Source: Klebsormidium nitens (lineage: Eukaryota > Plantae > Klebsormidiophyceae). Taken from it: 37,241 nucleotides of DNA. This document shows, piece by piece, positions 10,543-35,551 of the stretch. Below the pieces are notes generated by a model. That model had not been told where the DNA came from. It searched no databases and was given only the letters and a program-made list of their open reading frames with translations. A program made the position numbers and the translations under genes. The stretch's first letter is position 1, and each line of letters starts with the position of its first letter. The DNA is taken from positions 1 to 37,241 of the forward strand of contig DF237517.1 of the NCBI GenBank assembly GCA_000708835.1, given 5' to 3'.

Positions 10543-10649
10543 AACGATACTTCAATGCATGTGAAACTGGCCCTAAGCTTCTGATTGCAGGCTTGTGTGA
10601 GCAAGACATGCGTGTTGCCGGCTCACCAAGCTTCTGTGCAATGTTCAGA

Positions 10650-11459: not shown

Positions 11460-11472
11460 GAGAAAATCCTGC

Positions 11473-12427: not shown

Positions 12428-13071
12428 TTTTCCACCGGCGCAAAGGCTGGTACGGTACGTACCGGTAGTAAGAGGTAGGTACCGGGAACCATTTCACTCT
12501 ATAACGATATCTTGGCGCAGTCTGCAAAATTCTCTCGACTGAGTTGTGGATCTCCTAAGAAGTAACGCCAGTCTGCACCTCCAGTCTATCGTGCATATAC
12601 TACATATATATATAAAGCGTTACCTCCGGGAGGGGGGGGTTGGGACACTACACAACATATATAACGTAGAACATTTTACAACTACCACCAAAAGCTGCTT
12701 GTACGCGAAACGACCGGATTGCCGGCGTCATGACGTATCGTATATTACTACCACAACAATTTTTTGCTATCGGTTGTGTGTGTTGCATAAGTAGCTTTTC
12801 ATGTTTCCAATTGCGGGAAGCAGGGGCTCACAACCGAATAGCCTGCCTTTCTTCCGTATGCGATTATGGACAACGCCAGATGGGCTTGTGTCTGGGACTG
12901 GGATGATGTATCAATCTGGTCATGCGCACATAGCAGCCGCACACAGAGTCCCGTTTCGTATCACACAATGCTGCGTGTGGGTCGGATCCTTTGTCGTTCC
13001 ATCCTTGTGTGCCTTTCTTCCCGTCCTTTATATCAAGACCAACGAGACCTGGTATCCTTGCTGGTGTGCAG

Positions 13072-13993: not shown

Positions 13994-15256
13994 GTAGGCC
14001 CGCGAGGCTGCAAACCTTGTTGAGAGCAAGGAACGAAGATGACGAGCAAAAGGAGTCTCACTAGGAGCTGTCGTAAGTGCAGGGAGCCAGTTCGAAGCCA
14101 TCGGGGTCATGTAATTGGCTCCGAACTGGGGCAGGTGTGTGTTGCGTTTTGACTGGATGTTCCAGGGTTGCTGGATGGCTGACAAGGACGAGTATGTGGC
14201 TGGTGCCTTTGAGTTACGACAGGATATTGACAGTTGCTGAAGTGTATCACCCTTCCGCCTGCAGATCGAGGGAAGCAGATCCAAGAGCAGACGAATGCTC
14301 CAAGATCAGCACAGAGTCCTAGCGAAATAGACAAACAGGGCGGCCTGATACAGCACAAATGACAGCCCTCGACTTTATCCGGTCCGTCCACCAATTATAG
14401 AGTACTTGAGATTAAGAGGCATTGACGACATGAGAACCGAGTTGAGGGCTGCTATGTGGGGACTACATGCGATCAATGTCGAAAAGCTCACAAGGTGAAT
14501 CAGTACATCAAGGTGCCTGGCAGTTCTGCGAAATCGGTGGCTGAGTTTGGGCTTTCGAGCCGAATGACATAAACCAACTTCGAAAGCAGAGCCTTGCTCT
14601 TGTAACCTGCACTAAGTGCAAGAGCCATCACATACTTGGCGCGAAGTGATTCCGTCGCGCGCCCTCACATTTTGATCCCTACCTCCTCTCTGCTGATTAC
14701 GGATGCCGAGCAGTTGGATTCGTTGTGTGCATGCCTTCAGATGCAAAACCGATGTATCTTGGCATGTTGCAACCATATGCACATGGGCAATATATGAAGT
14801 CGCTTGTTGACAGTTGCAGCATCATGCTTGCAAGCCTTTGTTGAACAATGAACATGTGGTCATGTTGCATGTTCCAAGTTGAGGATGCTTTCCTTTGAAT
14901 TATATTTGTACTTCCCACTTCACATGCAAGCATGGCACTGATTTGCGTCGCTTGCAACTATGTTTAATTAGCTGACGAGCCAGTATTGTATGCCGCGGTC
15001 TCCTCGGCCCATGGTACTTGTGTGGCCAAGGGCGTATATTGAGAAGATAGAATCAGCCACCGGTTAATTGTGTAACAACTGAAGCGTCCAAGGTATGCAT
15101 GGAACACATGATCCTTATCATAGTATATTGCACCCACCAACTTCACTCGGGCATCATCACCATGACATACAGAGACTCATCCAAAATGTTTGTTGCCACC
15201 GAATTCTAATTATGGTATTGATGGAAACATGACCTTCGGTCTGTGTTTATTCTGGA

Positions 15257-15480
15257 AGGTTGTCTGACATTGGCAAAACCGCTTTGGGTAAGCTGGGAGC
15301 GTCACTACCTGGCTCAGGAATTTTTAATTCTAAAAGGTTGTCAGACATTAGCAGAGCTACTCTAGGTAAGCTGGGAGCGTTACTACCTGGCTCATGGCAG
15401 TTAATATTCTGAGAGATTGTCGGACGTTGACAAAGCTGCTCTGGGAAAGCTGGCAGCATCGCTACCTGGCTCAGGCAACT
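15257..15480 (-). repeat. Three 78/79-nt tandem repeats encoding PEPGSDAPSLPRAALxxSDNL at the Crinkler-like gene 3' end
   Basis: CTACCTGGCTCA at 15305, 15383 and 15462. Confidence 0.9.
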
Positions 15481-18400
15481 TCAACCGGATAGCCCATTGC
15501 TCTATGCTTTCGAGCTCAACAGGGACCTTGTCCTCCGGAAGAACGCCTTTTTTCACGACTATCTCCTTCAAACCCGTCTTGCCCACTCTTTCGGCTGCCT
15601 TCTCACCAGTCCAAGACTGCCAGCCATACTCCTCGAATCTTTCTTCTGGCACTGCATGTACGACTCGCACTTTCTTCTGGCTTCCACTTATTCGCTGCAG
15701 AAGTTTCAGAATCCCGCCCGCGCCAATCCCATGGTTGACATTCCGGGTGAACTGGATTGCATTTACCCAATCATCACCCGAGCAGATTAACGAGTCCCAC
15801 GACTCCTGGATTCTTGTGATTGGCATAACGTACGACTCCGTCAGCATCGCCAAATTGCTCATTTTGCTGGGGTTGTCCCAAACCAGGATCTTGGTGCCCC
15901 GGAACGCATTCTGAATCTCCATGATCACTTGCCTCTGCTCCGGTGTCGGTTCCTTCACTGCTTTCTGCGCTGGCGGCCGACCGGGCGCCTTCCTGAAGAC
16001 CTGCCTAATATCATCGCTACTCAGCTCGATGCCCTGTAGACATACTGCGTGCCCGAAGGATTCCAGGGCATCCCCTGACATCTTGCCTACTTCCTTCTCG
16101 CTGGCAGCGGCATGCAACAGGTCCACCAGGTCCCGCCACCGACCCCGCTGAGCTCTTGCAAAGACAAGCGCCTTGATAGCTTGCGAACCAAGGACGTACC
16201 CCACTCTGCGAAGATCTTCTGTTACCTGCACACACAGATTGCAAAGGTGGTCAGGTGGGATTAATCGTGTGCAAGTGAGTGCACACCGTCAAATCTGCCT
16301 TCAAACCTGCTTCAATAGAGGAGCACAGGCCCGACTGCAGGGACCAATTGTGTCGCCAGTCTTGCAATGCATAAGCTTGCAATCCAAATAAGGGTCGGCG
16401 TCGACCGAAAAGTGATGGACGTCTCAGGCGATCGAAACCGATCACGTGGAACCTACGTGGCGTACTGAGGAGCGGCTCGCCCAGTCTATTAAAAGCCAGA
16501 CTCGGGCCTGACCGAGGCTGGGGACTTGAAACTTTCAGACCCGGAAGATCGATCAGTAGTGACTGACGCAAGCTGATCAGCATGGGAATGATCAGCTCAT
16601 CAGCATCTACGCATCCAACTCGTCGCGCATGAGTGCTGAATGTTTACATGGCTGGTAAACTTACAACGTATTGCTACCGTACTTAGGGCATTCCGTTGTT
16701 TTGCTGTACTAGTATTTGAGATAACACCAGCTTGCCAGCTTCTTGAACAGCTGAACCCTAATTATGATGGCCGGGCTTGAGACGAACATCAGAACGTGCT
16801 CTGTGAATGTATCAACGAGCAGCTTTTCAGCTCATTGATCATCTTTGGGACTCACTGTATTTATCTTGTCATGGTTCTTCTCACGTTCAGGTACAATCAG
16901 AAGTTCCTCAAAGTTGGTGAAGAATCTAAAACATCTGGACATTGTTGCGGATGAGGGTCCCATTAGCTGCTTGCAAGCAATTCTGACGTTCAAAACGCAT
17001 CCTATGCGTTGGTCAAGACGTCAAATATCATGTTTCAGATGCTCTTTCATCAAGATGCTTCAATTCTCGATCACACAAACGCCCCCCATTTCTGGATGGA
17101 CTGTTTTGCCCCTCAAAGCAACAAAACGGGGGGCTCGTGTTCTCCATTCAAATGAAACCAATTACCAATCTGACTCCTCAAGCCTTTCAAAAACACAAAA
17201 TGGCACTCTGCATAAAGGTCTGTGCCTTCCCATCTGCCAGCCATTGTAAGCTAAACTTCAGCGACAAAGATGGTGCATTCCAGCATTCCACCATTTGAAA
17301 ACGGGTTTCATGCCGGGTTATGGAGGATAATCAGTATCTGTAACCAAGGGTTTCGATTCTTGGTCTCTGATTGGTCCACGCTGGACAAGAGAATCGGGAA
17401 TGCAGGCTCAGCCTTTTCGGTCGACGCCGACCCTCAAGGCACGAGAACAACAAAGACCAAGCAGAATACTGAGAGGTTGGGTATCATTCTAATCCATGAT
17501 TTTGTCCTATCAAGACGAGCTGTCTCACCGCAATATGTGCGAAAATGTGCCGCACTTCACTCTCCAGCGATTGAAGGCTCAGGTGGTACAAGTCCATAGC
17601 CTGATCAGCCGAAAGGGTCTCCGCAACGTCCTCAAAAGGAAGGTCAGGGTCCGCCAGGACGTTCCTGATCAGCCCGCCAAACTGCAGGACGCGGGTCTCC
17701 ATCAGCTCTTCCGACACCTCAGGGTAGAGGCGCCGCCGACAGTCCTCCAACTCGGACAGCGACCACGTGGGAAGCCACCAGAGCCGGCATCTCCTGAACC
17801 ACAATTCAAATTATCAGCAGGTCCCAAAGTGCCTGCTGTGGGAAGAGCTAAGGGTCAGAGGGGGTGCAAAAGCCAGACCTGCCTGTCTACGCTCGATGAA
17901 ACAAGACAAAGGCGCAGGTGTTAATCAGCAGCAGGCCAATGTAACCTCTGGTAAACGGTAACCCACAAAGGAGAGAGGGTTGCAAGCGAACGCCTGAAGG
18001 AGGGGAAGCTGATTAGCAGCCTTCCAGGACGTGCTGCGAGGTGCTGTAACGTCAGTGGCTTGCAGCCAGGATTCCGTCAACCTGTTTACTTTTGTAAGGC
18101 TGCAGACCAGCAAAAGCACAAGGAGCGAGCGACACTTAGCAAAAGCTAGCGGATCTGTTGCAAACGGAGTTGCGAGCCCAGGCAAGAACCCAGACCCTGG
18201 CACACATCAAGGTCCTAATTCCTCCCCTCCATGAACAACTCGCTTTGCAACGTCTAGTAACATTGTTCCACACATCACTTACTTTCCTTTCCGAAACTCC
18301 TTGTAGTTGTCTGCATTGGGCGAGCAAAGTACCACATAGCGACCATAACCCCGGAACTGCCCCTGGGGCGCTCGTCCGTCCTCCACTTCCCAAACGGTAG

Positions 18401-19349
18401 GCTGCTCAGAAAGATCTGCACAACAAGAGAGGACAACCGTTGCTGATAGGCATAAGAGCAATGCTGTCATTTACAGCATCAATAGTTCAGGCCCAGAGAG
18501 AGTGCGCTTTGCCATGTAATTACACCGTCACCTGACTTCACGGAAAACACATGTTCGCGTTGAGCATCCACCATCGTGGAACCTTTGCAGCTCTTTGAAC
18601 CTGGAAGCAAACTGCCCTTTGCTGCATAACAAGGGTTTCACGGTTGCATCATCATGTTTCAGACTTTTGCTTACATATGAGTGATGGCCAATCAACAGAG
18701 CCTTCAAAGGCCCTTTTGACGTTAATCGCCGATGGATCCGAGAAATCGAAGAAGACGATAACATTCCCTGCAGTGTTGTCTTTGTACCTGCAAAGGCAAA
18801 CTAAGAGTGTTGGCACATAACAAGTAGGCATTATATTTCCTGTTGCAGAAGGCCTGCTTAGCAAGTTGCTCAGCAACACACGCTACAAGTCAAAGCGGGC
18901 AACTACTGAGTCAGCCGAGAACGGTGTGCGCACACCTGTACGACACTTGAGCCCCCCGCTTTGCCAAGTGGTGCAGTAGAAGGATGGCGAAAGCAGACTT
19001 CCCAATGCCCGGGGAGCCACTGAGCACGACAGCAAAGTTGTCCGAGAGAGCATCGATTTTCTCCAGCAGCACGAGGTAGCATGGCCGGATAACGATGCTG
19101 TCCCTCAGGCTTGGAGGTACTGCCGGCGGAAGATTGGGGGGGACCTCGATGACTCCGCTGGCGGTGTCCGCATTTGCAATGTAGTTGGCATAACTTTGGA
19201 GCGCTGGACACACAGCAGATTTTCATTGTGGTGGCGACTAACCAATGGCAGAATCAGACACTTTTGCACCAATGCAAGAACCACTACAACAGACAATTAG
19301 CACCTGAAGCACGAGTCAAGAAAGCTGACAACACCAGCTTCATAGCGTC
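15401..19349 (-). CDS. Crinkler/RHS-type P-loop NTPase plus restriction-endonuclease-fold protein; exons 19349-19304, 19203-18936, 18787-18675, 18415-18283, 17793-17529, 16225-15401; N-terminus unresolved
   Basis: All GT-AG junctions are phase-compatible. Walker A LSGSPGIGKS, then VEDG, VLCSPNADNYKEFRK, LPTWSLSEL, FGGLIRNVL, GDALESFGH, and REase-like YVMP...WDS...IQFT...H...VVHAVP. Confidence 0.75.
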
Positions 19350-21313
19350 CTGAAGCTAAGAAAGCTATGAAGGTCACATCAACGGTAGTCTGACCAAAGC
19401 CGCCCACCTTGGAGGCCCTTTGCAACTTGCTGTTGCATGTCTGATCTACCATCATCTGGAGGCTTAGACGAAAGGCTTGAAGCTGCATATACAGAGGATT
19501 TGCAATCAAATTTGGTTGGTTCCGGAAGAACAATTGCACATGACAGCTGGAGCTACTTCTGCTGGCAAAAACTGCTTGGGGATTGGGCACAGGAGCAGCA
19601 GGAGACTGGAACACGAGAGCCCAGCATTAGCAGCGCAGCTTCAAGGCCAAGCTTTTAAGGTGCACAACACAATATGGTGATGTGTCTCTCACCTTGCATC
19701 CTCACCGTCATGAGACCCTGGCGCGGTGACCTCACCAACCCAGGCTTGTTCAAGAGCAGTCTGTTTACCGAGGTTCTGGACAGCCCTGTAGCAGATGAAC
19801 ACGGCATGAGTCAACCGCAATTTCTAGATGACACACTCAGGAAGGGATTTTTAGAGACAACAGCACATGCATTTTGCTTCAACACCTGCATGCGTCCAAA
19901 TTTCAAAAGGTGGTTCTGGACGGAGTTGATGGCATTGCCACAGCCCTGGTCACCTCATTCTGAGCGCTGTCCACTGCACCTGCGCATGGGCTCATCGAAC
20001 CAGCACACAACTCAGGCATGACCATAATGCTGCCGCTACTTTTACAGCTGCTCAGCCCAGACAGGCATAGCAATGATTGCTGACCTGGACGATGCTTCTC
20101 TGCGTATCCTTTTACTTCCAAGCTCAGTATCTTCTAAACATTGTGGGTCCCACTCTCTGCCGGGCTTGTTTCTCCAAATCTATCAATCGTCATCCTTGCT
20201 AAGAGACCTCTGATTCTAAGGAGGTCTCCTGGTGTACATGAAGAAAATATCGAGACGATGAAGCCAATTTCTTCCGCCAAGCGTAAAATGAGATAAGGCT
20301 CCTTCAGCCCTCTTTGAGCTGAGTATCAGATGTGTGTCCGAATTGTCACCGCTCAGAAGATGGCAACTTAGCAGAAGCTGACCGTCCGCATAACAATGCA
20401 GTCAACCGCTTGTGCACCTTCTCGATGGCTCTTCCCTTTCTTTTGCATCTACCACTTTACTCAACTTAAAACAAGTAGGTTTGTATTACCATCCTATTCC
20501 TAGTCTCCCTTGCTCCATCAAAGTGACCCAGCATGAAGAAAAGCCCTTGACAAATGACAGCACTTCCTACGCTCCGTTACTTAATCACGTAAACCAGCAA
20601 ATTCTGCTGCTACCAATCATCCTGAAATTCAAAATGAAGCTCATTGCCCACTCCTGTGGAAGCACCAAGAGGCAATCTGCAGTCTCTGCGCCTCACAATA
20701 CTTGCACTTCCGAAAGCAGCTTTCCACGCTCCCAAATCCCCCCAAAGATCTCCTGATTAGCTGGTTGAATTGAGCAGACACTTCAACAAAAGAGACATAG
20801 CCTTTCCAAGAAACAGACCCAGCTTCCTCTGGCTACTATGATCTTTCCGAAATTCACAGAACATAGTCCTCCCAGCCCAAGCGTTCATGGCACTAATATC
20901 AGAACAAATCCTACATCCAAGATGAGGGTGCAACTGCCACGCCCTCTGCGGAGCTTCCTCTGGTCAGCGGCTTAGGCAGACCAAAGAGTAACACTCTGGG
21001 GTCAACACCTGATGGAAAGGGACAATACCAGAAGAGCAGCAACTAGCAGGTCTTTCAAGAGTGGAGCTCACCAGCAGGGCCTTGACCTTCTCTCCTGACA
21101 TTAGTTGTGAGCTGCCCGGGCAGGTCTCTTGCTGAGACTTGTTTGCTGGGCCCAAAGGTCCGCCTCTCCTCCAAACCCTTTGCCGGGGCCCACGTGGGAC
21201 GAGCTGCAGTTGTCATAGCCCTACGTAAACGCTTGAGTCCCTGCTTTGGGTTTTGATCTAGGTGCTGGTGCTTCTGTTTTATGACAGGAACTCTTCAAGT
21301 CCGTGCGATGAGG

Positions 21314-22904: not shown

Positions 22905-22927
22905 NNNNNNNNNNNNNNNNNNNNNNN
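22905..22927. other. Assembly gap (N run)
   Basis: Run of N. Confidence 1.
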
Positions 22928-23124
22928 TTTATTTTCATCTAAAGATTTTCTCCGAATAAACATTTATCAGGTAAGAGGTTCCGTTTCTGCACGCGCCGCC
23001 AATCTGGCAAAAAACGGTGACAACTACAACAAAAAAGGTGACAACCACAACTCAAGAGACCATTTGTTTCACAATTGAGTACAGAGAACCAGCCTACCCT
23101 ATTTCATGCAAATGTTCGTCAAGT

Positions 23125-23421
23125 TCAGAACTCATTCCGGGCCGCCTTCTGCTTGCCCGTCAAACGTTCAGCCCTACTTTCATTGGCGAGACTGGTGTTG
23201 TTCGTGACAGATCCTGCAACCTGCTTTGCCGTTCCTGCAACCTTGTCGCCAGTGGCCTCTGCCTGCTTCCGAGCCTTTGCAGCGTCTATCTCTGCTTGCC
23301 CCTTCTCACGCTGTGCGGCACCCTTGCTTTTGAGGCGATTACTGAAAACCTTCCCCGTGGCTTCTTTTGAAGCTCCGACGGCCTTGTCAACATAACCTGA
23401 TGTCTTGTTGGACGTGGACAT
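23125..23421 (-). CDS. CsbD/LEA-like small hydrophilic stress protein (98 aa)
   Basis: A/K/G/T-rich with the pattern DKAVGASKEATG...EKGQAEIDAA...DKVAGTAKQVAGSVTNN, resembling CsbD-like and fungal HMP1-like proteins. Confidence 0.7.
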   Translation of the reverse strand: MSTSNKTSGYVDKAVGASKEATGKVFSNRLKSKGAAQREKGQAEIDAAKARKQAEATGDKVAGTAKQVAGSVTNNTSLANESRAERLTGKQKAARNEF

Positions 23422-23450
23422 GCTCAGCTATATGTCAAGGAAAAAAATGT

Positions 23451-24277
23451 TCAGAAGGCGGCACACGTGCAGTTGCATTGAAGGCGCTGCCGATTATCTT
23501 GCAAGGTCATCCGCCTGCTCTCTGGTGCTCTCAAAGTACTAGAGCTCTGCTTACAAGCGTACTCTCCGCCGACCCATCCCATTGGGACACAGTCGACGAG
23601 TTCGACCTCGCTTTTGGGGTCGCTCATCACGAGCTTCACGGAGATTGGAGCCTGAATCTGCCCGTTGTGGACGAAGCTCGTGCCCCAGTCACGCTTTAAA
23701 GGGACGTAACTGCCCGCAGGCGAGCGAATGAGCATCGCATCGTACGAACCCTGGCCGGCCAAGTTCAGAACTCGAAGGGACTGCCAATAGGGAGTGCCTT
23801 CGATCGATACAACAGGAGGCCCCACTCTCTTGCAATGCACTCTGCGGTATTGCAGTGCAAAGTGGCCGATCGCCATCGTACTTACCAGCTCGCTGAAGGC
23901 TTTCCCAGACAAGTCGAAATGATGTGCATCGGCACCACACCACTGCTCGTTGCCCTGAGTCGGGCAATAGTCGGTGATCGTAACCACGACGGACCTGCCA
24001 GTACATACGGGATTTCCTAAGCACTTGATCTCGTAGCATGCCCCGCAGTTTGCACCGCCCTTGTAAAGCTGATCGCTGCCGGCTGCAAAGAGAGGGCCGT
24101 AGGTCGCCCCCTGGATTCCAGCAATGCTGCGGCTGAGGTCACTGAAGCCGCATTTCCAGCATAACCGCCGGACACGTCATCAACTCCCGTATAGTAAGTA
24201 GCGGTCCCTGCCAGCCAGCCCGGCTCCTGAGAAACTACGCAGCTGGTTAAAGATAGGAGCACAAAGAAGAATATCAT
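23451..24277 (-). CDS. Intronless expansin (signal peptide, DPBB domain, CBM63-like domain) with one apparent -1 frameshift at 24153-24155
   Basis: MIFFFVLLSLTSCVVS signal peptide, then ATYY, (G)KCGF, YG...AAGS..LY.GG..CGACYEIKC, VTITDYCP, HHFDLSG.AF, YRRVHC and RDWG. Adding one A to an AAA run gives a 275-aa ORF. Confidence 0.9.
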
Positions 24278-24314
24278 CGTTCTGCAATACGGGTAGAAAA
24301 AGTGACAAAGAGCA

Positions 24315-24596
24315 TCACCGTTTGTAGGTGGCTGCAGCGAGCTGCATGGCATCCTTGTACGTCTTGCCAAGCGGTTTGATGTCATCGTAAACACTCTTCA
24401 CGTGGTCTAACCACGCCTGGAGTTTAGGATTATTGATGGCATTCTCGTGCCTTTTCCGAGACACAATGGTCCTGGACTTTCCATCATGAGTCGCGTACAT
24501 GAGGTCCTTCTTTTTGAGGCCCGATGAGGTGTGGTCCTTCTCAGACTTCATGACCTGCCTCCTCTCTAGTCTGTACTTTTTGATGTGCGATGCCAT
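24315..24596 (-). CDS. DVNP: DVNP-like (dinoflagellate/viral nucleoprotein) basic protein, 93 aa
   Basis: RRQVM...HTSSGLKKKDLMY...TIVSRKRH...LQAW..V matches the recalled DVNP pattern R.QV...T.GGL.K.DL...IVSKK...AW. Confidence 0.75.
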   Translation of the reverse strand: MASHIKKYRLERRQVMKSEKDHTSSGLKKKDLMYATHDGKSRTIVSRKRHENAINNPKLQAWLDHVKSVYDDIKPLGKTYKDAMQLAAATYKR

Positions 24597-24679
24597 TCTT
24601 TTTGATTCGCTGTGCAATGGCATCACAAAAAAATTGGGACGAGAATTTTGCACTCTGTTTTTCCTGGACAGTATGACAG

Positions 24680-25876
24680 ATGGAATGGAGCCGACTCGTT
24701 GCAGCAGCCAGCGCTGGGGACGGGATGGCAGTCGACCACCTGATCGAAGCACGCTTGAAGGGGGAGCTTCCACCAAGCGAAGAGCAGGCCTTTGAAGAGA
24801 GTTGCTTCCTGTATTGGTTCCGTGATGGGCCGTATTCTCAAGAGGCACGGAAGAATGCAACCTCTCATGACCCCGAGGAGAGCAACCTGAGCCGTGACAA
24901 GAATGCCAGCCGTATGGACTTTCGGTTCATAGAGGCCTCCCACATGTCACGGCTCCTCGGCCTCGGTTTGGAAGGGTCCTGGGACGTCTCTGTGACTTTC
25001 CACCCCCACAGTTCGAACAAGGTTCGTGTCCATATTGTTGAGGAGCCTGAAGCCCCAAAAGTTGATTGGTACGCCCAGTCGCGTGCTTGGCAGAGGTCTG
25101 GATACAAGCTCGTGCGGGAGTGGAAGCGGGCGAGGGTGGCGAGCGTGAGGCAGAACCTGTCGATGCAAGCCTTTCAGAAACGTGGGCAGCTCGCGAGGAG
25201 CGTGAGCTACATCATCCAGTGTTTCAGTTCGACTTCCAAAGGAACGTCAAGAAGCGCCGTGGCTGACCTGACCCTCAAAGCTTCGCTCGGAGAAACAGAC
25301 GAAGAGGATCCTGGCAGCAGTACAAACATCTTGCGCGTGCTCCTCTCTGCCACATGTACAGCAACAAATGAGTTGGGCGGACAGGTGAGTCACAGGGGCC
25401 AGATCGACCTCTACGGAGGCAGCTTTTGCAGCTTGGCGGATTGGTCGGTCAAAGAGTCTGCAAAGTTGGACGTTCCCGACAGCTGTGATGCTCATCATGG
25501 TGCGTCCACCCTGAGATGTAACCGACTGGATGACCTCTCGGGAGTTGGGGACGTGTCCGACATGCAGCTTGACACGATGTGGCTTCTCCAAGACAAGGGG
25601 ATGCACACTTTTCGGGCATCGGTCAAGCACGAGCTTGAGGTGGCACGAGAGAGCCGCAAGAGTAAGCTGCTAGGCCGGGTCTCTCGGCTGTTCCAGGACC
25701 CCGTGTCATCGGTCCTGTCGGTTTCCAATTCTCTGTCTGTGTATGTGACATGTGATCTGTCGTTTTCCGACTTTCTCAACAAGCTGGGTATGATGCGGCG
25801 TGTGAGGGACCAGGCACTGAAACCCAATCAAGGAATCCAGCGCCTGACAAACGTGGGGGCCTCTGCACGTTTTTAG
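24680..25876 (+). CDS. Hypothetical protein (398 aa)
   Basis: Long intronless ORF divergent from DVNP. Confidence 0.65.
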   Translation: MEWSRLVAAASAGDGMAVDHLIEARLKGELPPSEEQAFEESCFLYWFRDGPYSQEARKNATSHDPEESNLSRDKNASRMDFRFIEASHMSRLLGLGLEGSWDVSVTFHPHSSNKVRVHIVEEPEAPKVDWYAQSRAWQRSGYKLVREWKRARVASVRQNLSMQAFQKRGQLARSVSYIIQCFSSTSKGTSRSAVADLTLKASLGETDEEDPGSSTNILRVLLSATCTATNELGGQVSHRGQIDLYGGSFCSLADWSVKESAKLDVPDSCDAHHGASTLRCNRLDDLSGVGDVSDMQLDTMWLLQDKGMHTFRASVKHELEVARESRKSKLLGRVSRLFQDPVSSVLSVSNSLSVYVTCDLSFSDFLNKLGMMRRVRDQALKPNQGIQRLTNVGASARF

Positions 25877-25903
25877 GGGGTCGCAAAAGTCCCGAGGCTT
25901 CTC

Positions 25904-26467
25904 ATGGAGATGACGCCAGCTTACAATGGCCAGGAGGACTACTCGCTGCTGGAAACAAAATCGATCAGCGACTGGATGTTTCTCGCAGACCTGCCCGATG
26001 CTGCCGCATTTGCCAAGGCTTCTTTGGAGGTCGATCGCCTCCTGAAGCCCTTGCAGACAGAGCAGGAGGCCTGTGGAAAGGAGGTTGCAGAGGCCCGTCG
26101 GAGGCTGTCAACGTTCGAGGAGGGTTTGTCCCGGGTCATGAATCACGTGCATGAGGCCTCCGCCATCGAAGTCATACAAAGCCTTGTCAAAGATGTGAAG
26201 AACGGGCTGGAAAGGGACTTGACTGAGAAGGTGCTCCGGTTGGAACAGATACATGCAAAGCTGGCTGCTTTCTACGAAGTAACAAGCAAGATGAAACGGG
26301 CAATCAATCCTGACATGTGTGGGGAGTGCCCGGTCTGCACTCACGCTCAGGTCAGGCTTGCAATGATTCCGTGCGGTCATTGCATATGTGACGAGTGCTA
26401 TCGAGGCCGGAGCGTGTGTCACTACTGCCGCAGCCTGGTTGAACGGGCATTGCGGATCTATCTCTGA
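25904..26467 (+). CDS. Coiled-coil protein with C-terminal C3HC4 RING finger (putative E3 ligase)
   Basis: CPVC...PCGHCICDEC...CHYCR at the C-terminus. Intronless. Confidence 0.85.
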   Translation: MEMTPAYNGQEDYSLLETKSISDWMFLADLPDAAAFAKASLEVDRLLKPLQTEQEACGKEVAEARRRLSTFEEGLSRVMNHVHEASAIEVIQSLVKDVKNGLERDLTEKVLRLEQIHAKLAAFYEVTSKMKRAINPDMCGECPVCTHAQVRLAMIPCGHCICDECYRGRSVCHYCRSLVERALRIYL

Positions 26468-27362
26468 GCCAAGGGTGATCCAAGGCTTCCCTCGCTGTCG
26501 CTCTCGACTCGACGTTCCTGTTGAGCAGCCGTTTCAGAAAGTCTTTTGCGGGCAGGCTGAGGTCCGCATTGTCAATGTCAGGCTCGTCCCTCAGCACGGC
26601 CTTGAAGATCTCCGAGTCCGTCCTCCCAAAGAAGGGCCGTGTTCCGATCAACAGGATGTATGTCAGGACCCCCACGCTCCACTCGTCTGCCTTGAGATTG
26701 TAGGCCTGCTTTAGGACTTCTGGCGCGACAAAAAATGGGCTCCCCACTACTTCCTTGACAGTTTCGTTCTCTTGACACTTGTAGGACAGACCAAAGTCTA
26801 TTGCTTTTATGATGTTGTCCTTCTCGTTGGCAAAGATGAAGTTTTCAGGCTTGATGTCCCGGTGGATCACGTTCTTCTCATGCATGTAGGCAACTGCCGT
26901 GAGGATCTGCCACACCAACTCGACCGCGGTTGCCTCCTTGTATGGCCCCTGGTTGCTGAGGATGTCATCCATCAGCTCGCCACCTTGGCATAGCTCCATC
27001 ACAATGTACACGTTCATCAAGTCCTCGTAAGCTGCCATGAACTCCACTATCCCCTCGTGGCCTGACAGCAGGCTCAAGATCTGGACCTCTCTGTGAACGT
27101 CCATAATGGCGGCCTCACTGATCATGGAGCTCTTTGGGATGATCTTCACGGCCACAGTGCCGCCCTTTTGTGACTTGGCCTCTGCGATGTGCGTCCTGCC
27201 AAAAGATCCGCGACCAATCTCCTCCTTGACCGTGTACATGTCCTTAAAGTGCCGGTTGAACCCAAAATCTTTGTTTGCCAGGGTTGTCCTTGGAACAGTC
27301 TGCTCTGGCGATGGTTCATCCTGGGTCTCATGATCTCTTTGCTTCCCGATGCACAGCCCCAT
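26352..27362 (-). CDS. Intronless CDPK-related Ser/Thr kinase (CRK-like) lacking the C-terminal regulatory domain, 336 aa
   Basis: MGLCIGK acylation motif, DFGFNRHF, GRGSFG, VAVKIIPK, DVHREVQIL, VYIVMELCQGGEL, HRDIKPEN, KAIDFGLS, VGSPFFVAPEVL, RPFFGRTDSEIF and HPWL. Confidence 0.9.
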   Translation of the reverse strand: MGLCIGKQRDHETQDEPSPEQTVPRTTLANKDFGFNRHFKDMYTVKEEIGRGSFGRTHIAEAKSQKGGTVAVKIIPKSSMISEAAIMDVHREVQILSLLSGHEGIVEFMAAYEDLMNVYIVMELCQGGELMDDILSNQGPYKEATAVELVWQILTAVAYMHEKNVIHRDIKPENFIFANEKDNIIKAIDFGLSYKCQENETVKEVVGSPFFVAPEVLKQAYNLKADEWSVGVLTYILLIGTRPFFGRTDSEIFKAVLRDEPDIDNADLSLPAKDFLKRLLNRNVESRATAREALDHPWLRDRSAMPVQPGCGSSDTRSGLDSTRHICNDRTESLQA

Positions 27363-27369
27363 GTGCCTC

Positions 27370-28140
27370 TTATACCGCTGTATTTTCTCCAAAATGCAGC
27401 TCATAGATGCATGTAAAGAATTCCTGAAGGCCACCGAACCAGGGAAGGTGGGATTCTGCCGTGACCAAGTAGAACCTCCCATCGTGCTGTACGACACAGG
27501 TGGGGTCTGTGATGGCCCGCTCGAGCTGGGCCTCCACCTCTGCAAAGCTCATCTGCCAGCTCTTTACATCCAGCCGCCATACAAACGGGTTGTGTTTGAC
27601 CTCGCCCTTGGGGCCTGCCGTCGTACGGTGTCCAAAGCCGACGTAGACACGGTCGTCGACCGGGGTCTTGTAACCAGGGGTGCCACCGCGCAGGCTGTAG
27701 TCCGGGCTCTCCTTCCGGGCCCTGACTCGCCTCCAAGTATCGGGGTAGGGCGACTCGGTTGTAGACAGCACGGTCAGGGGTCGGAGCCACTCGATGCAGA
27801 GGAGCTCGTCGCCGTGGGAGATGAGGCTGAGATTCTTGCCCTTTGAGGGAAGCTTGCACGGTCGGAAGTTGTCAGCTGGCACGATCAAGCTGCTGCTGCC
27901 CCAGGTGTTGTCCAGCAGGTAGTCCGTGCCCTTGTGTGAGATGCACCTCGGGTCCTCCCCAGGGCACGTTTGGCCGAAATCATGCACGATGGTCCAGCCA
28001 CGTGGGTCAATCAGGCAGCGGCCCAGGATCCTCTGGTCGTATCGGAGCCGATAGAAAGAGTCAAACATCCCGGTCGCGTCGCTTCGGAGTATGTAGAAGA
28101 TAGTGCCCGGCGGTGTAGGCACTCGGGCAGTGTTCCTCAT
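27370..28140 (-). CDS. Putative five-bladed beta-propeller glycoside hydrolase/transferase (GH130/BMT-like)
   Basis: GEDPR, GKNL, LRGGTP and GFGH motifs in the expected order. Confidence 0.55.
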   Translation of the reverse strand: MRNTARVPTPPGTIFYILRSDATGMFDSFYRLRYDQRILGRCLIDPRGWTIVHDFGQTCPGEDPRCISHKGTDYLLDNTWGSSSLIVPADNFRPCKLPSKGKNLSLISHGDELLCIEWLRPLTVLSTTESPYPDTWRRVRARKESPDYSLRGGTPGYKTPVDDRVYVGFGHRTTAGPKGEVKHNPFVWRLDVKSWQMSFAEVEAQLERAITDPTCVVQHDGRFYLVTAESHLPWFGGLQEFFTCIYELHFGENTAV

Positions 28141-28240
28141 TGTGATGCCGCGGATGCAGTCGGTTGGAAGCATGAGTGTCCTGTAGGCTACACAGGAGAA
28201 ACGGCCACCGATGGACCGCACGGATTCAGTTCCGGCTCTG

Positions 28241-29914
28241 TTACTTCCATCCTATCCCGGTTGACGTTACAGTTGGCTTGTTGGCATTGTTGTTCTTGGA
28301 CACAAAAGGATTTTTGCTGGTGTTTGTCTGGTTGAAGCCGTTTACGGCCATTGCTTTTGACAAGTTCGACCCTCTTACTGCCTGAGCTGCATTGACAGAT
28401 TGCCCAATGTTCTTGGACACGAAAGGATTTTTGCTGGTGTTTGTGTGATTAAAGCCGTTTGCAGCCATTGATTTTGAGAGGTTCTGCCCGGTGAGCGCTC
28501 TTACAGCCTCTGCGGCATTTGCGACTTGGACACCGTTCTTTGCACCAACCACGCTCTTGGTATTGTTCTGGATGGTGTTTTGCAGAACTTTACTCGGAGC
28601 TCCCGCCTTCTTTGCAATATTTTTAAGCCCTTCCTGACCGGTTGCTTGCAATCCGTTGCCAATGAGGGCAACCTGCGTTGCTGCTAACTTGGAAGCGTCA
28701 TGGTCGGGTCTTTGGTTGAGCTGCGACCTAGCATTGTTGCTATTGAAGTTTGCAAAGTTGGGAGCATTGATTGCTTTTGCCGCCAAAACCACTGCATCAG
28801 TGGGGGGCATACCACCGGTGGGAGTCGTTGCATTCTGCGCTACTGCAACAAGCACGTCCGATGGGTTTCCTGTCTGTGCAGCACTTGCAATGCTTTCGTG
28901 ACCTTCCTTAGAAGCTACGAGGTTTTTCTTCTTCAAGGCTGTCGCAACCGCCTCAGGTGTCATCTTTTCTGGTTGATGAATGTCCTTGACGGCTCCAGTG
29001 ACTGCATTCACTGGAGGAGGGGCCCCATTCGTGGTTACAGCCGCGTTCGCAATCGCCTTTGCAGTGCTCTCTTCTCCCAATGGTGTGCTTTCAGCAACGA
29101 GGCGTTTGCCATCGGCGGATGCATCCAAGCCGTTGTTCTTTAGCGCAGCATCAACCTGCTTGTTGACCCGCTTGTTCTGATTGGCAACCCAGCTCTTCAT
29201 ATTGCCTTTACCTTTCTCAAACGCGTCCTTGTTCATGAGAGGAACCCCGTTGGCAATGCGCTTGTCGAGTGTCCGATAGTCGGGGTGCATAAACCGACCC
29301 GTCAAGGTAGTCCCAAAACGGTGATTGGCATTCCTATACTGATCAACATCTTCGAGATTCACCTTTGACCGATAAACTTTTTTAAGGTTCAGGTCATCAC
29401 CTACGTTTGCTGGGTCGTAGAAGATGTGAGTCTGACCGTCCTCTTGCGCGTCAGGAAGGTTTTTTGTGTTGAAGTCAACGTAATCCGGGTTGAGCGAGAG
29501 CCGGTCAGGCGGAGGGCTCAGACGCGATGGTGTTAAGAGTTTGCTCACCACCTTGTAAAGGCTAATATCGCCACCCTGTGCCAGAGTGCCCCTCTCTTCG
29601 AGGATCTTCCGCATCACGAAGCTCAAGCGGGCGCTGCGGGTTGCCTCGCTTGCCGCGTTGTAATCGTTGCCGTCCAGAGAAACGACGAGTTTGCCATCTT
29701 TGACAGTGATCTTGGCCTTTTCATTGCTCTCGTACCCTGGTGGGTGCTCAATGTAATTCACGAGCTCCCTTGCCAACTCGTCCAGCAAATCCTGCACGTG
29801 CTTTTCATAGTACAGAAAGGTATCACTGCCATATTCGTGCTTCGTAGCCTCCGATTGTGCGTCACGCAACTCCATCAACCACTTGTCTACAAAGTCCCCG
29901 ATCGTCACTTGCAT
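28241..29914 (-). CDS. Asn/Ala/Lys-rich protein with duplicated C-terminal repeat, possible virion protein
   Basis: 557-aa intronless ORF. NLSK(S/A)MA(A/V)NGFN(H/Q)TNTSKNPFVSKN occurs twice. Confidence 0.7.
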   Translation of the reverse strand: MQVTIGDFVDKWLMELRDAQSEATKHEYGSDTFLYYEKHVQDLLDELARELVNYIEHPPGYESNEKAKITVKDGKLVVSLDGNDYNAASEATRSARLSFVMRKILEERGTLAQGGDISLYKVVSKLLTPSRLSPPPDRLSLNPDYVDFNTKNLPDAQEDGQTHIFYDPANVGDDLNLKKVYRSKVNLEDVDQYRNANHRFGTTLTGRFMHPDYRTLDKRIANGVPLMNKDAFEKGKGNMKSWVANQNKRVNKQVDAALKNNGLDASADGKRLVAESTPLGEESTAKAIANAAVTTNGAPPPVNAVTGAVKDIHQPEKMTPEAVATALKKKNLVASKEGHESIASAAQTGNPSDVLVAVAQNATTPTGGMPPTDAVVLAAKAINAPNFANFNSNNARSQLNQRPDHDASKLAATQVALIGNGLQATGQEGLKNIAKKAGAPSKVLQNTIQNNTKSVVGAKNGVQVANAAEAVRALTGQNLSKSMAANGFNHTNTSKNPFVSKNIGQSVNAAQAVRGSNLSKAMAVNGFNQTNTSKNPFVSKNNNANKPTVTSTGIGWK

Positions 29915-29943
29915 CCTCTATGTAACCAATGCCACAAAATCTT

Positions 29944-30687
29944 TCAGACTGCGAGTAGCTCTTGGTAGTGCAGCAATGCTGTTTTGAACAGGGTCTCGGC
30001 GAGGCCACCGAGCACCTCAGCATCCATGCGCAGGACAGTGCGTTCCCTTGCTGCGAGGCCCTCTCTGCGGGCGACACTCGCTGCTTGCGTGAAGCGCTTG
30101 AAGGTGAACCACATCCAGCCGAGGGACTTGTGGAAAGCCTCAAGCTTCAACCTGCTCTTCCACCAGACGTCTGCTGCCTGCTTGTAGCAGCGGCGCCTGG
30201 CAAACGCAACCAATGGGAGGCTCCTAGAGAGCCCTGAGAACTTTGCGGCGTGGATCCCGCAGCTCTCTATGAGGTACATCAAGGACGATCGGATCTCCCC
30301 GAGCGGCTGGTAATCGGGCTCTTCCGACAGAGAGTGCGGGTTGAGGTACACGTCAACAGGCTCGAGGGCCGCCATTGTGCAATAGAGGTACTGCATGACG
30401 ACGGCCAGGCGGGCGATTGCATCGTAGCTCACAGCCTTCCATTGCAGAGCATATTGCAAGGACAACTCCGCAACTCGGACGTCATCCTCGTCGGGCTTGC
30501 AGTACCATGTGTAACGAGTTATAGCGCGCAGGTCCTTCATGATGGCATCCATGCTGGTCTTCTCCGTGATGTCAAAGTCGCGCACTCTTTGATTTGGTGA
30601 GACGTTGAAGTGTTTCATGCAGTACCGGTCGTGTTTCTGGTACACTCTCTCACTACACGAAGCATCAGCACACACGCCAAAGTCCAT
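29944..30687 (-). CDS. Hypothetical protein with N-terminal C-x4-C-x10-C-x2-H motif
   Basis: ATG at 30687, 18 nt downstream of the TOP2 stop. Intronless. Confidence 0.6.
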   Translation of the reverse strand: MDFGVCADASCSERVYQKHDRYCMKHFNVSPNQRVRDFDITEKTSMDAIMKDLRAITRYTWYCKPDEDDVRVAELSLQYALQWKAVSYDAIARLAVVMQYLYCTMAALEPVDVYLNPHSLSEEPDYQPLGEIRSSLMYLIESCGIHAAKFSGLSRSLPLVAFARRRCYKQAADVWWKSRLKLEAFHKSLGWMWFTFKRFTQAASVARREGLAARERTVLRMDAEVLGGLAETLFKTALLHYQELLAV

Positions 30688-30705
30688 ACCAAGCAACCAG
30701 GCTAT

Positions 30706-33700
30706 CTATGCTCCGATTTTCCGCGCTCTCTCCAACTCAAGCAGGTCTTCCTCCCACAGCGCCGAAGAAGTGTTGCCCTTGAGGAGGTCAAGGGCTGACG
30801 CCAGGGCCTCTTTGGCCGCCAAGAGCCTCTCCACCTCGTCCACCGTCAGGCTCGACAGGGGGAGCGACATGAAGCGCTGATGGTAGGCCTCGGGGATCCC
30901 TGCCGCGCTCATGTCGGCACGGATGTCTGCCACCTTGGCTTTCAGAAGTCGGACACCCCCATCGAGCACACTCGTCACAAAGAGCGCCCGGTAGGAACAG
31001 GCAGCCAGCTCCTCTTCTTTTGCTCGGATCAGGTGCAGCAGGCGGCGTTCGTAGAGGCTCAGCCGCACCCCAAAGAACTCCCGCAGGATGTCGGTCACGG
31101 TCTCAAACCGTCTTATGTGGCCGTTCGAGTCGAACAGGTGCATGTTGTTGGTGCTCAGCTTCCTGGTGAGGCAGAGCTCCTTCTCGATGTCAGGCAGGAT
31201 AGTCTCGAGCCTCTCGGGGCTGAACTCCACGGTGAAGTCCACAATCGTGTCCGTGCATTCGTTCTTGATGGACCGGGCCCCTAGCTTGTCGCTCTCCAGG
31301 AAAGCCTTGTAGGCGTCGATCGACGTCCCGATTGGCAGCTCCGTGATGCGGATGCGGCTGCTGTCGAGCCTCTCGTAAACCCCGGAAACGACGTACTCCC
31401 CCTTTTCAGACTCCCGGACGGTCCCCTTGAAGCCAGCCCAAGAAGGGTGCATCTCAATCGGGTCGAGGCCTCGCAGCATTGCCCGGATGTTGGCAATGAC
31501 GTCCTCCAGCGCGTGGTTGGGGACGTACGTGGAGAAGCCAGTGCCGATACCGGAGGCACCGTTCAGGAGGATCAAGGGTACGGTCGGGACAAAGTAGGCT
31601 GGCTCTATGGCCTTGCCGTCCTCTTCAAGGTAGGTCAGGAGGGGGCCGTCGGCAGGGTGGACAGCGCAGAGTGCAGTTGGAGTCAGGTGCGTGAAGAGGT
31701 ATCTCGGCGCGGCACCTGCGACCGCCCAAGTTGCTTCTTGAGGGGCTGTCTGCGCTTCTCTTGCAGCTTTTGACGTTCGAGATAGTCATTGGCACTGTAA
31801 AAACATGCAGAAAGGGCGGCACCGTGAGCTGCAAGACATGCAGTATCCTGTATGCCAAGCACCTTGGTTGTCACCACAGGCCTGTAACATGATGCAAGGG
31901 TGGCGCCCACCAGTGACCTGCCTGACATGCTGTCTTGTATTGGCACGCAGGTTTTGAACACGGCTCGGATGCAGAATACTCACTGTCCTTCCCGTTGGCC
32001 AGGCGCGTCCCGAACATCCCGACCGGTTCGAGCAGGTTGAGGTTGTTGGATCCCACAAACGTCTGCGCCAGGTTAATGATGGCGCCGCTCAGACTCTCCT
32101 CCCCTATGACAAAAGTAAGCTTTCACCCGTCAGATTCTCGACCCTCTCAATTTTCGAAAGGTTGTCTGACGTCAAATATGCAGAACATTGTAGTCAACTG
32201 CAAACTTGCGCACGTACACGGATGGAGCGCAACTTTCAAAAGTATTTCAAAATCTGGGACCTAGTAAATTTGACTATAGGAGGGGGGTTGAAAACACTTG
32301 CTCATGCGCGCATGCGTGTTGTAGCCATGCCGGTAAGGATAAACCAAGACTTTGTAGTTCACAGCATGCTACAGCCATTCCAGTAAGAAACAGAGGTTTG
32401 TAGTTTACAGCAAGCTCACGCATATACACGGATGGAGCGCAACTTTCAAAAGTATTTCAAAATCTGGGACCCCCCTTTTTTGACTATAGGAGGGGGGTTG
32501 AAAACACTCGCTCATCCGCGCATCTGCGCAAGAGGTTCGCCTCTCACCGTGATGGTATGCACTTCCCTCTGCGACCGCCGCGGCTAGCTGGGCCACCTTG
32601 AACTCCTCCCGAACGTTTCTTTTGATGCTGACGTGGATGATCTTCCTCGTCGAGGGTTTCAGACCGTCGATTGCACTGGGGATGGAGCGGCGGACATCAG
32701 CAATGGAGTAGTTGACAAGCTCGGTGTCCACCATCTCTGAGAGGGTCACCCGCTCGCCTACCGGCTCCGGCGCTGGGTTTGCAATCGCCTCAACGATCCA
32801 CCTCTTCCTGTCGTTTGCCCTTGCCTTTTGAAAGGCTAGCTGCATGGCCGCGGCCGCCCCGGGGTCCGTTGTGTACGTGACCTTGCTCATGTTGCTGAAG
32901 ATCTCCTTGGCATCCTTGGCGGTGGACGTGCCCAGACCTGCATCGCTCAGAAGCTTAGGAAAGTGCTCTTGGGGCAGAGCGTCAAGAAATATGGCAATGG
33001 TGGCTCGCCTGGAGACGCTTATCCAGGTGCCCGCTCCAGATGTCAGTCGACAGAAGGTCAGGATTCGTCATGATTTTGCTGCTGGAACCATCGAATTGCT
33101 CACCGCAGACACAGCCATCAGAGCTGGGCCTTCAAAGATTGCATACCTCAACTATCAGCTCTTCGAGACAAGTGCATACATAAGCCTTATGGGTGTTTCC
33201 AAACCTTTCCGGGGTATGGGATTTTCGTTCCTGCTGCTGAACACCGCACTCGCGCACATGTACTCCCTCGGTGTCAAGGAAGTGCAGCTCTTCTGTTATC
33301 CTTTAGCCGAAGGGCAGCAGACAGGCGAAGACGCACACTTGAGCAGACTACAGGCCCTCTACACGCGTTACGGTTTCCAACCAGTCCAAGACGAGAGGGA
33401 GAGGTTGACGGGTCCCGAGAGGTACCGAGTCCCTGGAAGTTCGCACCTTTCAGGAACTTGATTCGCCAGGCACCACGGGCCTCGCTCGTCTGTGCCCACT
33501 CCCTGTACTGCCGCTCCGTGAAGAACGCACGCGTCAGGCTGCTCTTGAACGCCCTGACCACGTGGGTCCTCAGGTGCCACGCAAACCCCAGCTGCAAAAG
33601 AATCCTTGTACTTTCGAATGGAGGAGACGGGGACAGCGGCAGACAAAGGCACGAGCAAAGACAAGAGTGCGGAGAACCAGCATACCATTGTCAGAGAGCC

Positions 33701-35332
33701 TTCGTTGGATGTGTGGCTGACCTCGATAAGCTCCGGCCAGCCAAACTCGACAAAGTTGAGGAAGAGCGCTCGGATGTGCGTGCCATCGCAGTCAGCATCC
33801 GTGAGGAGCATGACTCTCCCGTAGCGCAGCTCCAAGAGCGACTTGTACTTGTGGCCCTCTCGGAGGCCCAGGATCTGCTTGAGGTTGGCAATCTCCTTGT
33901 TCTCCGCAATGGCCTTGATTGGGGCGTCCCTGCAGTTGAGGATCTTCCCCCGCAGCGCAAAGACCCCGTACAACTCCCTGCCAACCACAGAAAGCCCTGC
34001 CATGGCGAAAGCACGAGCGCTGTCCCCTTCCACCACCAGGAGCGTGCATTCGGAGCTCCGCTTGCCACCCGCTTTGTTGGCATCCTCCAGCTTGGGGATC
34101 CCCCTGATGACGCTCGTCTTGTTCCCGTCCGTTCGTGACAGAGTCTTGGCCTCTCGCTCCCTTGCCTTTGCAATGATCGCGTCGGCAATCCCTAGCTTGC
34201 CCACCACCTTTCCAACCACCTCGTCTGGCACCTCGCACGTGCTCCCAAAGAGGCTGGCCTTTAGCGTGCACATCTCCTTTGTCTGAGAGCTGAAGGTGGG
34301 GTTGACGAGCGTCGCATTCACAAAGAGCATCAGCTTTTCCTTGACATGTGCTGGCCGGATAGTAGCCCCCTTCACCTTGGCCTGCAGCATTTCGGCAACC
34401 CTCCGGGTGAGCGGCGCAACCACGTGCTCCACGTGGGTGCCGCCCAGAGCCGTGTGCACGCCGTTGACGAACGAGATGGCTTGGAAGCCGTCCGCGGAAG
34501 CAGCTACACAGACCTCCCAGCGCTCGTTTGGGCGGAAGAACACGCGCGGCGCCTCCTTCTTGCACCCGATGAACAGCTCGCAGTAGCTCTCAAACCCACC
34601 CTTGGACGGGAGGTTCTTGCCATTGAAAGACACCCTCACGCTCGGACGCGTGCAGGCTGCGGCGTCGTGGGCCCTCCGGTGGAGGAGGCTGACAATCTCG
34701 TCGTTCAGGCGTTCCATGGAGAAGACAGCGAGGTCGGGTTTGAAGGAGATCTTGCAGTAGCCGTGCTTGGGATTCTTGGGGCGTGAGATCTTTGGCGGCT
34801 TGCACTTGGACATCCCGTCCTCCCAGACCTGGCAATACTTGAGCCCTCTCTCTAGGTCCAAGGTCTCAACAGCAAAGGATTGGCTGAAGACGTTGGTCAG
34901 CTTGGCCCCGTACCCGTTGCGCCCGCCGGTGGTCCGCTCCTCCGAGTCATCATAGTTTGAAGAGGTCAGGAGGTTGCCAAAGATCAGCTCAGGTATGTAC
35001 ATCTTGTAAGAGTCGTGCTCAACCACGGGGATGCCTCGCCCGCTGTTGGCCACGCTGATAAGCCCTGCCTCCACATCAACCTCAACCTTGATGGAGTCGA
35101 CGGTCGGGTCCACCTTTGTCTGGTCGATCGCGTTGACCAGGATCTCGTCCACAATCTTGTAGAGGCCAGGGACGACAGTGATCTCCTTCTCGATGGCGCG
35201 CCCTTCCTCGATGACCCAGGTCTTGGTCTGCTCTGGGACAACGGACCCTACATATGAATCTGGTCGAGTTCGGATGTGCTCGATGGGGGTGCAGCGCCTG
35301 TAAGTTGCTGAGACCTGAGCAGTCGAGGCCAT
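30706..35332 (-). CDS. TOP2: Type IIA DNA topoisomerase, short viral type, 1091 aa after splicing; exons 35332-33722, 33591-33447, 32937-32548, 32103-31984, 31715-30706
   Basis: [38 protein letters not shown]|LGTS, DGLKP, YHHG|EESL and KDS|AAPRY (catalytic Tyr at 31701-31699). Four GT-AG introns restore the frame (3276 nt). No eukaryotic C-terminal domain. Confidence 0.95.
32215..32523. repeat. About 99-nt direct repeat x2 (32215-32313, 32425-32523) inside TOP2 intron 3
   Basis: TACACGGATGGAGCGCAACTTTCAAAAGTATTTCAAAATCTGGGAC...TTGACTATAGGAGGGGGGTTGAAAACACT occurs twice, 210 nt apart. Confidence 0.95.
32991..33461 (+). CDS. GNAT-family acetyltransferase nested antisense in TOP2 intron 2 (156 aa)
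   Basis: Motif [21 protein letters not shown] and motif B LYTRYGF. Confidence 0.75.
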   Translation: MAMVARLETLIQVPAPDVSRQKVRIRHDFAAGTIELLTADTAIRAGPSKIAYLNYQLFETSAYISLMGVSKPFRGMGFSFLLLNTALAHMYSLGVKEVQLFCYPLAEGQQTGEDAHLSRLQALYTRYGFQPVQDERERLTGPERYRVPGSSHLSGT

Positions 35333-35551
35333 CTTGAATCTGAAGGAACATTCTGAGCGACAAAGGCAATATGAAGGAGGAGAAGTGTGGCCCTAGATGA
35401 GTGCAGATGGCAGCCTGTGGCGTGCAGCAGCCACGGCCTGCCTACCCATGCCCGACTGCGCCAGCTTGAAGTCCATATAAAAGGCCGATTTGAGGGTGTG
35501 AATCTTCATTTGAAGAGTTTCACCTTTTGTGAAACTCTTTGCCTTTCTTCC

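Follow-up and report, generated by a model that had tools for sequence, protein, structure and literature searches.

The closest described systems are two similar expansins encoded beside VLTF3 on NCLDV-like contigs of Klebsormidium flaccidum, and section 3.4 of the report on those contigs proposes that they help a virus to cross the host wall (Gallot-Lavallee and Blanc, 2017; PMC5294986). An initial annotation of the DNA analysed here knew of no described viral expansin; the 2017 copies are such a precedent, as they share with our locus the host genus, the giant-virus gene setting and the proposed wall-crossing role. Our locus lies on contig DF237517.1 of Klebsormidium nitens, positions 1 to 37,241, and this whole stretch is called the window below. 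Whereas the 2017 copies flank VLTF3, the window copy sits between a DVNP gene and a CsbD-like gene. The K. nitens protein GAQ85077.1 (P0182) and the window protein group together in one clade (support 100/99), and it is likely that P0182 and P0031, which are 75% identical to each other, are the 2017 pair. The window protein shares 52% identity with P0182, which belongs to the sister sublineage, and probably represents a further, distinct sublineage relative to the 2017 copies.

Other expansins offer partial likenesses. Plant EXPA proteins have the same two domains, HFD motif and cysteines, and the CP...WC loop before the HFD motif of the window protein resembles a shorter form of the alpha-insertion which, with the alpha-deletion, marks EXPA domain 1 (PMC3628503). 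However, identity to EXPA is only about 30%, the window gene is intron-free and has a Cys-ended tail, and its relatives carry GNCG where EXPA has GACG. Among solved structures, plant EXPB in the form of maize EXPB1 (PDB 2hcz) is the best match by sequence (E 2e-17) and by fold, and the aromatic positions of domain 2 align, but identity in the fold match is 26%, EXPB1 lacks the insertion before HFD, and the best tree sets the window protein in a separate clade. Microbial EXLX proteins (Bacillus EXLX1, Clavibacter, fungal) have the same fold, a non-plant carrier and presumably a use on host walls. In contrast, the window protein is virus-carried and has a disulfide-rich, plant-type domain 1, and its score against the NCBIfam EXLX1 model (NF041144) is 37.3 bits, below the curated cut-off of 100. 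Finally, chlorovirus wall-degrading enzymes, such as the chitinases cited in PMC5294986, are likewise viral proteins aimed at an algal host wall; these are hydrolases, whereas the window protein is predicted to be non-lytic, and chlorovirus proteins in BFVD give only a weak, barwin-type match to domain 1 (E about 0.01). Family features and context follow the relevant parts of PMC3628503 and PMC11244446. The literature searched, whose coverage excludes most subscription journals, gave nothing joining expansin with Nucleocytoviricota or DVNP with Klebsormidium.

Organisation of the expansin gene

On the minus strand the expansin reading begins at an ATG at 24277, runs for 41 codons to 24155 in one frame, and resumes in another frame for 233 codons, from 24152 to a stop codon whose end is 23451 (Table 1). 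Joining the two pieces requires no intron, in agreement with the initial annotation, and the short spacers that it gave, to the DVNP stop on one side and the CsbD-like ATG on the other, are as measured.

Table 1. Coordinates of the expansin gene, its neighbours and the surrounding stretches in the window.
Feature	Position	Strand	Remarks
Spliced host genes	12791..21100		RNA-type contigs in 3 of 4 runs, about 12.8-22.2 kb, 10 listed GT..AG-type joints
Assembly gap	22905..22927		23 N; boundary between host-like stretch and viral block
Gene-dense block, likely of giant-virus origin	22928..35400 (right edge approximate)		CsbD-like, expansin, DVNP, ORF without assigned family, RING, kinase, NCLDV-type hypothetical, topoisomerase II pieces
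CsbD-like gene (stress protein family)	23125..23421	-	29 nt downstream of expansin
C-terminal tail of expansin	23451..23552	-	About 33 residues, ending CxCxC, then stop codon
Expansin domain 2 (Expansin_C, CBM63-type)	23553..23828	-	2 cysteines; W123, W156, F160 and W193 (piece numbering) align with EXPB1 aromatics
Expansin domain 1 (double-psi beta-barrel)	23829..24152	-	8 cysteines, TD motif, HFD motif at 23921-23913
Frame break	24151..24154	-	Lacks 1 base compared with homologues; X1, X4 and X5 contigs have an additional base
Expansin piece 1	24155..24277	-	Start codon, hydrophobic leader (about residues 1-16) and first domain 1 strand with TYY motif; aligned to N-termini of full-length homologues
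DVNP gene (viral nucleoprotein family)	24315..24596	-	37 nt upstream of expansin; Pfam 2.6e-11

Around 24153-24155 the initial annotation had seen a single lesion, an A missing from a homopolymer, and had taken it for a sequencing error. DNA contigs were compared over the break from four of the five public runs that cover the region (X1, X3, X4 and X5); X1, X3 and X4 are from a single sample, which may be the window's own source, and X5 is from a separate sample and study. One extra base at 24151-24152 is carried by the contigs of X1 (depth 21.1 of 21.1), X4 (5.61 of 5.61, with one other difference in 273 nt) and X5 (25.2 of 35.7), and X3 has zero cover over these two positions. As the extra base is found in three of the four DNA runs, from two studies, an assembly error very likely accounts for the frame break, and the gene is probably intact in the DNA of the alga. 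The homopolymer part of the earlier explanation is not borne out, since the run of identical bases at the break is only three long and the placement of the extra base differs among the three contigs, in two of them without extending that run.

The same runs also differ from the window elsewhere, by a single base at 23178 in all four and at 23878 in X1 and X4, the latter difference being absent from X3 and X5. Over 22930-26500, 98 of the 108 places at which X5 differs are C>T or G>A. This pattern looks like that of a bisulfite library over heavily methylated DNA.

Predicted expansin protein

The protein had been described from the letters as a complete two-domain expansin with a signal peptide, conserved cysteines and an HFD motif, and the comparisons made here bear out this description. 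Pfam matches to the second piece all lie above their cut-offs (DPBB_1 2e-16, EXPB1_D1 1.5e-9 and Expansin_C 2.4e-7). With a best 11-residue Kyte-Doolittle mean of 2.63, the leader counts as strongly hydrophobic, and by the same hydropathy measure a leader is present in all five homologues checked; its cleavage would fall after about residue 16. A full-length, 79% identical homologue (P0026) was modelled from 122 sequences with a pLDDT of 88.7 and a pTM of 0.80, whereas a first fold with nine sequences had reached a pLDDT of 55. The 11 top solved-structure matches of the P0026 model are all two-domain expansins, with maize EXPB1 first (E 4e-18, TM 0.68/0.78). A BFVD fold search gave single-domain matches only (best TM 0.34) and no two-domain match, and a PHROGs search with the expansin returned nothing.

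At the level of residues, all 24 clade rows, the window among them, keep the eight cysteines of domain 1, the TD aspartate and both the H and the D of HFD, and 22 of them also have the F of that motif. The four domain 2 aromatics (Table 1) correspond in the sequence alignment to Y, W, W and W of EXPB1. Furthermore, an N-terminal motif of the type YTGxxDxSGG occurs in 23 of the 25 clade rows, the other two having no such region, and in none of 167 other proteins. From these features we infer that the protein would be a secreted, disulfide-bonded and non-lytic wall loosener.

Relatives and shared gene order

Searches for expansin relatives gave 22 matches among 165 candidates: nine at 55-86% identity (eight environmental proteins and P0006), the partial P0020, and 12 at 28-33%. 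The environmental homologues are full-length or nearly so, derive from gene calls of JGI, ENA and Logan, on contigs of up to 78 kb, and appear to be intron-free; some of them may lie in inserts carried by the genomes of other algae, or may even be genes of a host. The K. nitens gene model GAQ91109.1 (P0006) contains DVNP, expansin and CsbD fused in the order of the window at 86-87% identity, and so the three genes were already neighbours before both copies diverged. For both a DVNP at 80% identity (P0198) and an expansin at 85% identity (P0003), the source is a Logan contig 2833 nt long. The two probably share that contig, and the upstream extension of P0003 matches the spacer of the window. 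The public K. nitens gene model of the window copy, the 'hypothetical protein' GAQ89839.1 (P0020), has a CsbD part that matches the window at 100% identity for 100 residues and an expansin piece of 39 residues at 97% identity. The CsbD-like gene adjoins expansin in two loci; a gene of this kind would suit a virus whose host is a soil alga tolerant of desiccation.

Giant-virus genomes, to which the initial annotation had pointed, yielded no free virus genome with an expansin: viral_contigs returned no locus for the expansin, ORF 24680, topoisomerase II or DVNP, and BFVD gave no two-domain match. Metagenome searches for expansin gave either no match or 33 loci at 24-37% identity, eight of which were translated; each of the eight is a GC-rich EXLX lipoprotein of bacterial type and lies outside the clade ('myxobacterial' for these rows is a label given in the analysis). 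A CPxxGNEQWC loop is common to these bacterial lipoproteins (L001-L033) and the viral clade, the loci having been retrieved by that pattern and thus selected for it; the tree separates them.

Phylogenetic position and donor

A FastTree analysis used the 151 cores retained from 197 fetched proteins, the 46 that were dropped as too short including P0031, P0011, P0113, P0193 and P0020. In this tree the window protein lies in a 25-row clade with a support of 100, together with P0006, P0182 and environmental proteins. An IQ-TREE analysis of 59 chosen rows (LG+G4 with no mixture model, a bootstrap that had not fully settled, and labels given in the analysis for unnamed rows) recovers the clade, here 14 rows, at 100/99, with two sublineages at 99/94 and 97/89. 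The best tree nests it in the green-plant expansins (100/99), with a weak tie to two Chara proteins (87/62). Set among EXPA, EXPB, algal and microbial rows, as the initial annotation had suggested, the protein therefore falls in a clade of its own. On the sequences compared, this clade comprises at least 25 proteins that are 35-99% alike, in two sublineages with differing neighbours.

AU tests, on groups chosen after a first tree, reject joining the clade with eight EXPA-like rows (p 0.016), of which only one carries a name from its source, the EXPA label being that of the analysis. Joining it with EXPB (p 0.17), with all microbial expansins (p 0.37) or with the myxobacterial-type rows alone (p 0.07) is not rejected. 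A green alga is the favoured, though tentative, candidate for the donor.

The probable giant-virus block

The expansin gene lies in a stretch that differs markedly from the spliced host genes across the assembly gap, with ORFs of at least 150 aa making up 77% of 22928-35400 compared with 11% of the host stretch. DVNP, the immediate neighbour, is known from giant viruses and, among cells, from dinoflagellates only (PMC11953307). The window DVNP has a further in-frame ATG at 24623, and its homologues begin at 24596. The CsbD Pfam match (1.5e-9, 38.1 bits) is just below its cut-off of 40. For ORF 27370-28173 the top Atlas clusters are 82-95% viral, most commonly Nucleocytoviricota, with a score of 0.95-0.96 and a recognition score below the 2300 mark of the tool, and this placement is moderate evidence for a viral block; ORF 24680 had no usable Atlas match. 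Capsid, DNA polymerase, packaging ATPase and VLTF3 genes were sought by Pfam among 30 ORFs and none was found, the block being about 12 kb and gap-bounded. No tRNA genes were called, and around the expansin only short, chance-level repeats are present. The RNA-type contigs of four runs leave 23067-31500 uncovered save for a 21-nt match at 24874, and no RNA dataset is listed as covering 22950-26500; neither observation is taken here as evidence on expression.

Taken together, the gene order in a second, 86% identical locus, the DVNP neighbour, the intron-free, dense block, the separate clade and the lack of retrocopy hallmarks uphold the initial reading of the expansin as virus-borne, which we hold with high confidence. 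The block itself very likely represents part of a giant virus of Klebsormidium that became integrated.

Several other features of the block deserve mention. DNA runs contain a second copy of 24784-25929, about 90% identical across ORF 24680, and a related insert is therefore indicated in the same organism. Topoisomerase II, which with DVNP and the Atlas clusters counts towards the NCLDV-type character of the block, is split over at least three ORFs (33368-35332, 32405-32890 and 30706-31479, all within 30706-35332), and this fragmentation may reflect decay, introns or assembly errors. At 26352-27482 there is an intron-free Ser/Thr kinase (Pfam Pkinase 2e-65), presumably resembling a relative of the plant calcium-dependent kinases and probably another captured host gene. 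The T5NT motif, which we take to be the early terminator of poxviruses, was considered as a block-wide signal and discarded; it follows the expansin and DVNP stops, yet it occurs after only two of 19 genes.

Possible roles in infection

Wall loosening for entry or release would be a plausible function for a protein with this sequence and predicted fold. Our preferred explanation, to which we give somewhat better than even chances, is that the intron-free expansin of the integrated block allowed a giant virus to loosen the cellulose wall, most probably from within the cell for release. The leader would route the protein into the host ER, where its cysteines would pair. Outside the cell, domain 2 could attach to cellulose by its aromatics and domain 1 could act through its HFD aspartate as in other expansins, so that the secreted protein would loosen the wall without cutting it. 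A soluble secretory protein would reach the wall most simply from the infected cell, and could there help progeny out. Release, or spread along the filament, is favoured over entry because the leader is present and no transmembrane anchor is found beyond it. The gene may have been captured long ago from a green alga and then kept by the virus group.

A role in entry is possible, although distinctly less probable than release. The protein would then be attached to the virion, for instance by a disulfide through its Cys-ended tail, and would loosen the wall at the point of attachment. A terminal CxC is found in 16 of the 25 clade rows compared with two of the 167 remaining proteins, and of these two P0193 in fact belongs to the clade. 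The 13 cysteines downstream of the frame break, in the mature chain, would leave one unpaired, and in the other sublineage a Pro/Ser/Thr linker separates the core from the CxC, as in tethered domains. An odd cysteine count and a conserved tail would thus also fit a virion-tethered entry factor. In addition, the DVNP of another giant virus is part of its virion (PMC11953307), and section 3.4 of PMC5294986 names wall crossing with no direction chosen. However, a tether of this kind would have to do without a membrane anchor, the tail of the P0026 model is of low confidence (pLDDT 55-73), and in giant viruses the neighbours of a gene say little about what it does.

A broader proposal, which we consider unlikely, is that a family of giant viruses of filamentous streptophyte algae has an ancient lineage of expansins of its own, which opens cellulose walls non-enzymatically and is attached to the virion or oligomerised by way of the Cys tail. 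Were this lineage to branch at or below the base of green-plant expansins, such viruses could have helped expansins to pass between microbes and the algae from which land plants descend.

Fate and origin of the presumably integrated copy

Under the release reading, the copy now in the algal genome is probably a silent relic, because the methylated genes of K. nitens are enriched for viral ones (PMC12344493) and the differences of X5 from the window are bisulfite-like. Takeover of the gene by the alga, as a host expansin used under some condition, is quite improbable. The apparently unbroken frame in the alga's DNA and the short end branch of the window protein (0.035) would be consistent with it, but a recent insert would likewise show an intact frame. 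Moreover, the topoisomerase II of the same block is in pieces as assembled, the expansin has gained no intron, and the methylation of viral genes is against such a use.

It is less probable still that the block is free or latent virus DNA of the culture, scaffolded beside host DNA across the gap, and the viral origin of the gene would be unaffected if it were. The host-virus junction does coincide with an assembly weakness, as the block begins directly past the 23-base gap and none of the listed contigs was seen to bridge the host and viral parts. However, DNA runs of two samples and studies contain the block, several diverged copies exist within the species, and integration is argued from multiple diverged core genes in PMC5294986. 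The C>T and G>A pattern of X5, if it does stem from methylated DNA, also fits poorly with free virus.

That a host retrocopy landed in the viral insert after integration is very improbable indeed. The gene is of plant type and its clade lies among green-plant expansins in the best tree, and the intron-rich K. nitens expansins of PMC11547041 fell outside the direct comparison, as they were not recognised among the compared rows. The shared gene order contradicts this reading, since the second locus keeps the order with all three genes about equally diverged, and the probable linkage to DVNP on the environmental contig is also against it. The initial annotation had named poly-A, a target-site repeat and a near-identical paralogue as the marks of a retrocopy. 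No poly-A and no target-site repeat were found, the flanks never sharing a word of more than 6 nt, and among the 165 candidates no near-identical paralogue appeared, the named cellular matches outside the clade being 28-33% identical. In its base composition the expansin (GC3 0.67) matches its viral neighbours (0.57-0.79), although the one host exon measured (0.62) is no different.

Equally improbable is a hydrolytic, GH45-like endoglucanase in place of a non-lytic loosener. The homology of domain 1 with GH45 enzymes (E about 3e-4 to 9e-4, with fold matches) speaks for it, as do the TD and HFD aspartates, which never vary within the clade. However, other expansins often have these residues too (aspartate in 50 and 87 of 98 non-clade rows, respectively), and the full two-domain match is to expansins, GH45 covering domain 1 only at TM 0.32-0.34.

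Consequences for expansin annotation

In the public K. nitens models GAQ91109.1 and GAQ89839.1, the separate DVNP, expansin and CsbD-like genes (window 23125-24596) are merged into false proteins. The former is used as an algal expansin in bioRxiv 10.1101/637728. Similarly, Table S2 of PMC11547041 gives seven K. nitens EXPA genes, and the words 'virus' and 'viral' do not appear in its main text. Two entries of that table, kfl00728_0080 (394 codons) and kfl00219_0300 (250 codons), match P0006 and P0182 in length and have the fewest introns. Virus-borne copies counted as host expansins bear on inferences about the origin of plant expansins.

The proposal of 2017 gains evidence from these results, as the gene has long been kept in a virus group and is not a one-off capture. 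What is added here is the breadth of the clade, its tail ending in cysteines, the gene order common to two loci and the pitfall in annotation. With intact homologues available in nature, the passage of giant viruses through a cellulose wall becomes testable by creep assay.

Further features of the window

A second gene-dense stretch at 680-11900, with 63% in ORFs of at least 150 aa, encodes a GT11-like glycosyltransferase, an mRNA cap N7 methyltransferase, an F-box protein and a DUF900 protein; it is probably another viral piece, with the spliced host genes lying between it and the expansin block. At the start of the host-like stretch, a tRNA-like sequence at 12360-12430, which ARAGORN does not call, is possibly a tRNA-derived repeat. 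To the right of the viral block, 36239-37171 encodes a U-box protein with a coiled coil.
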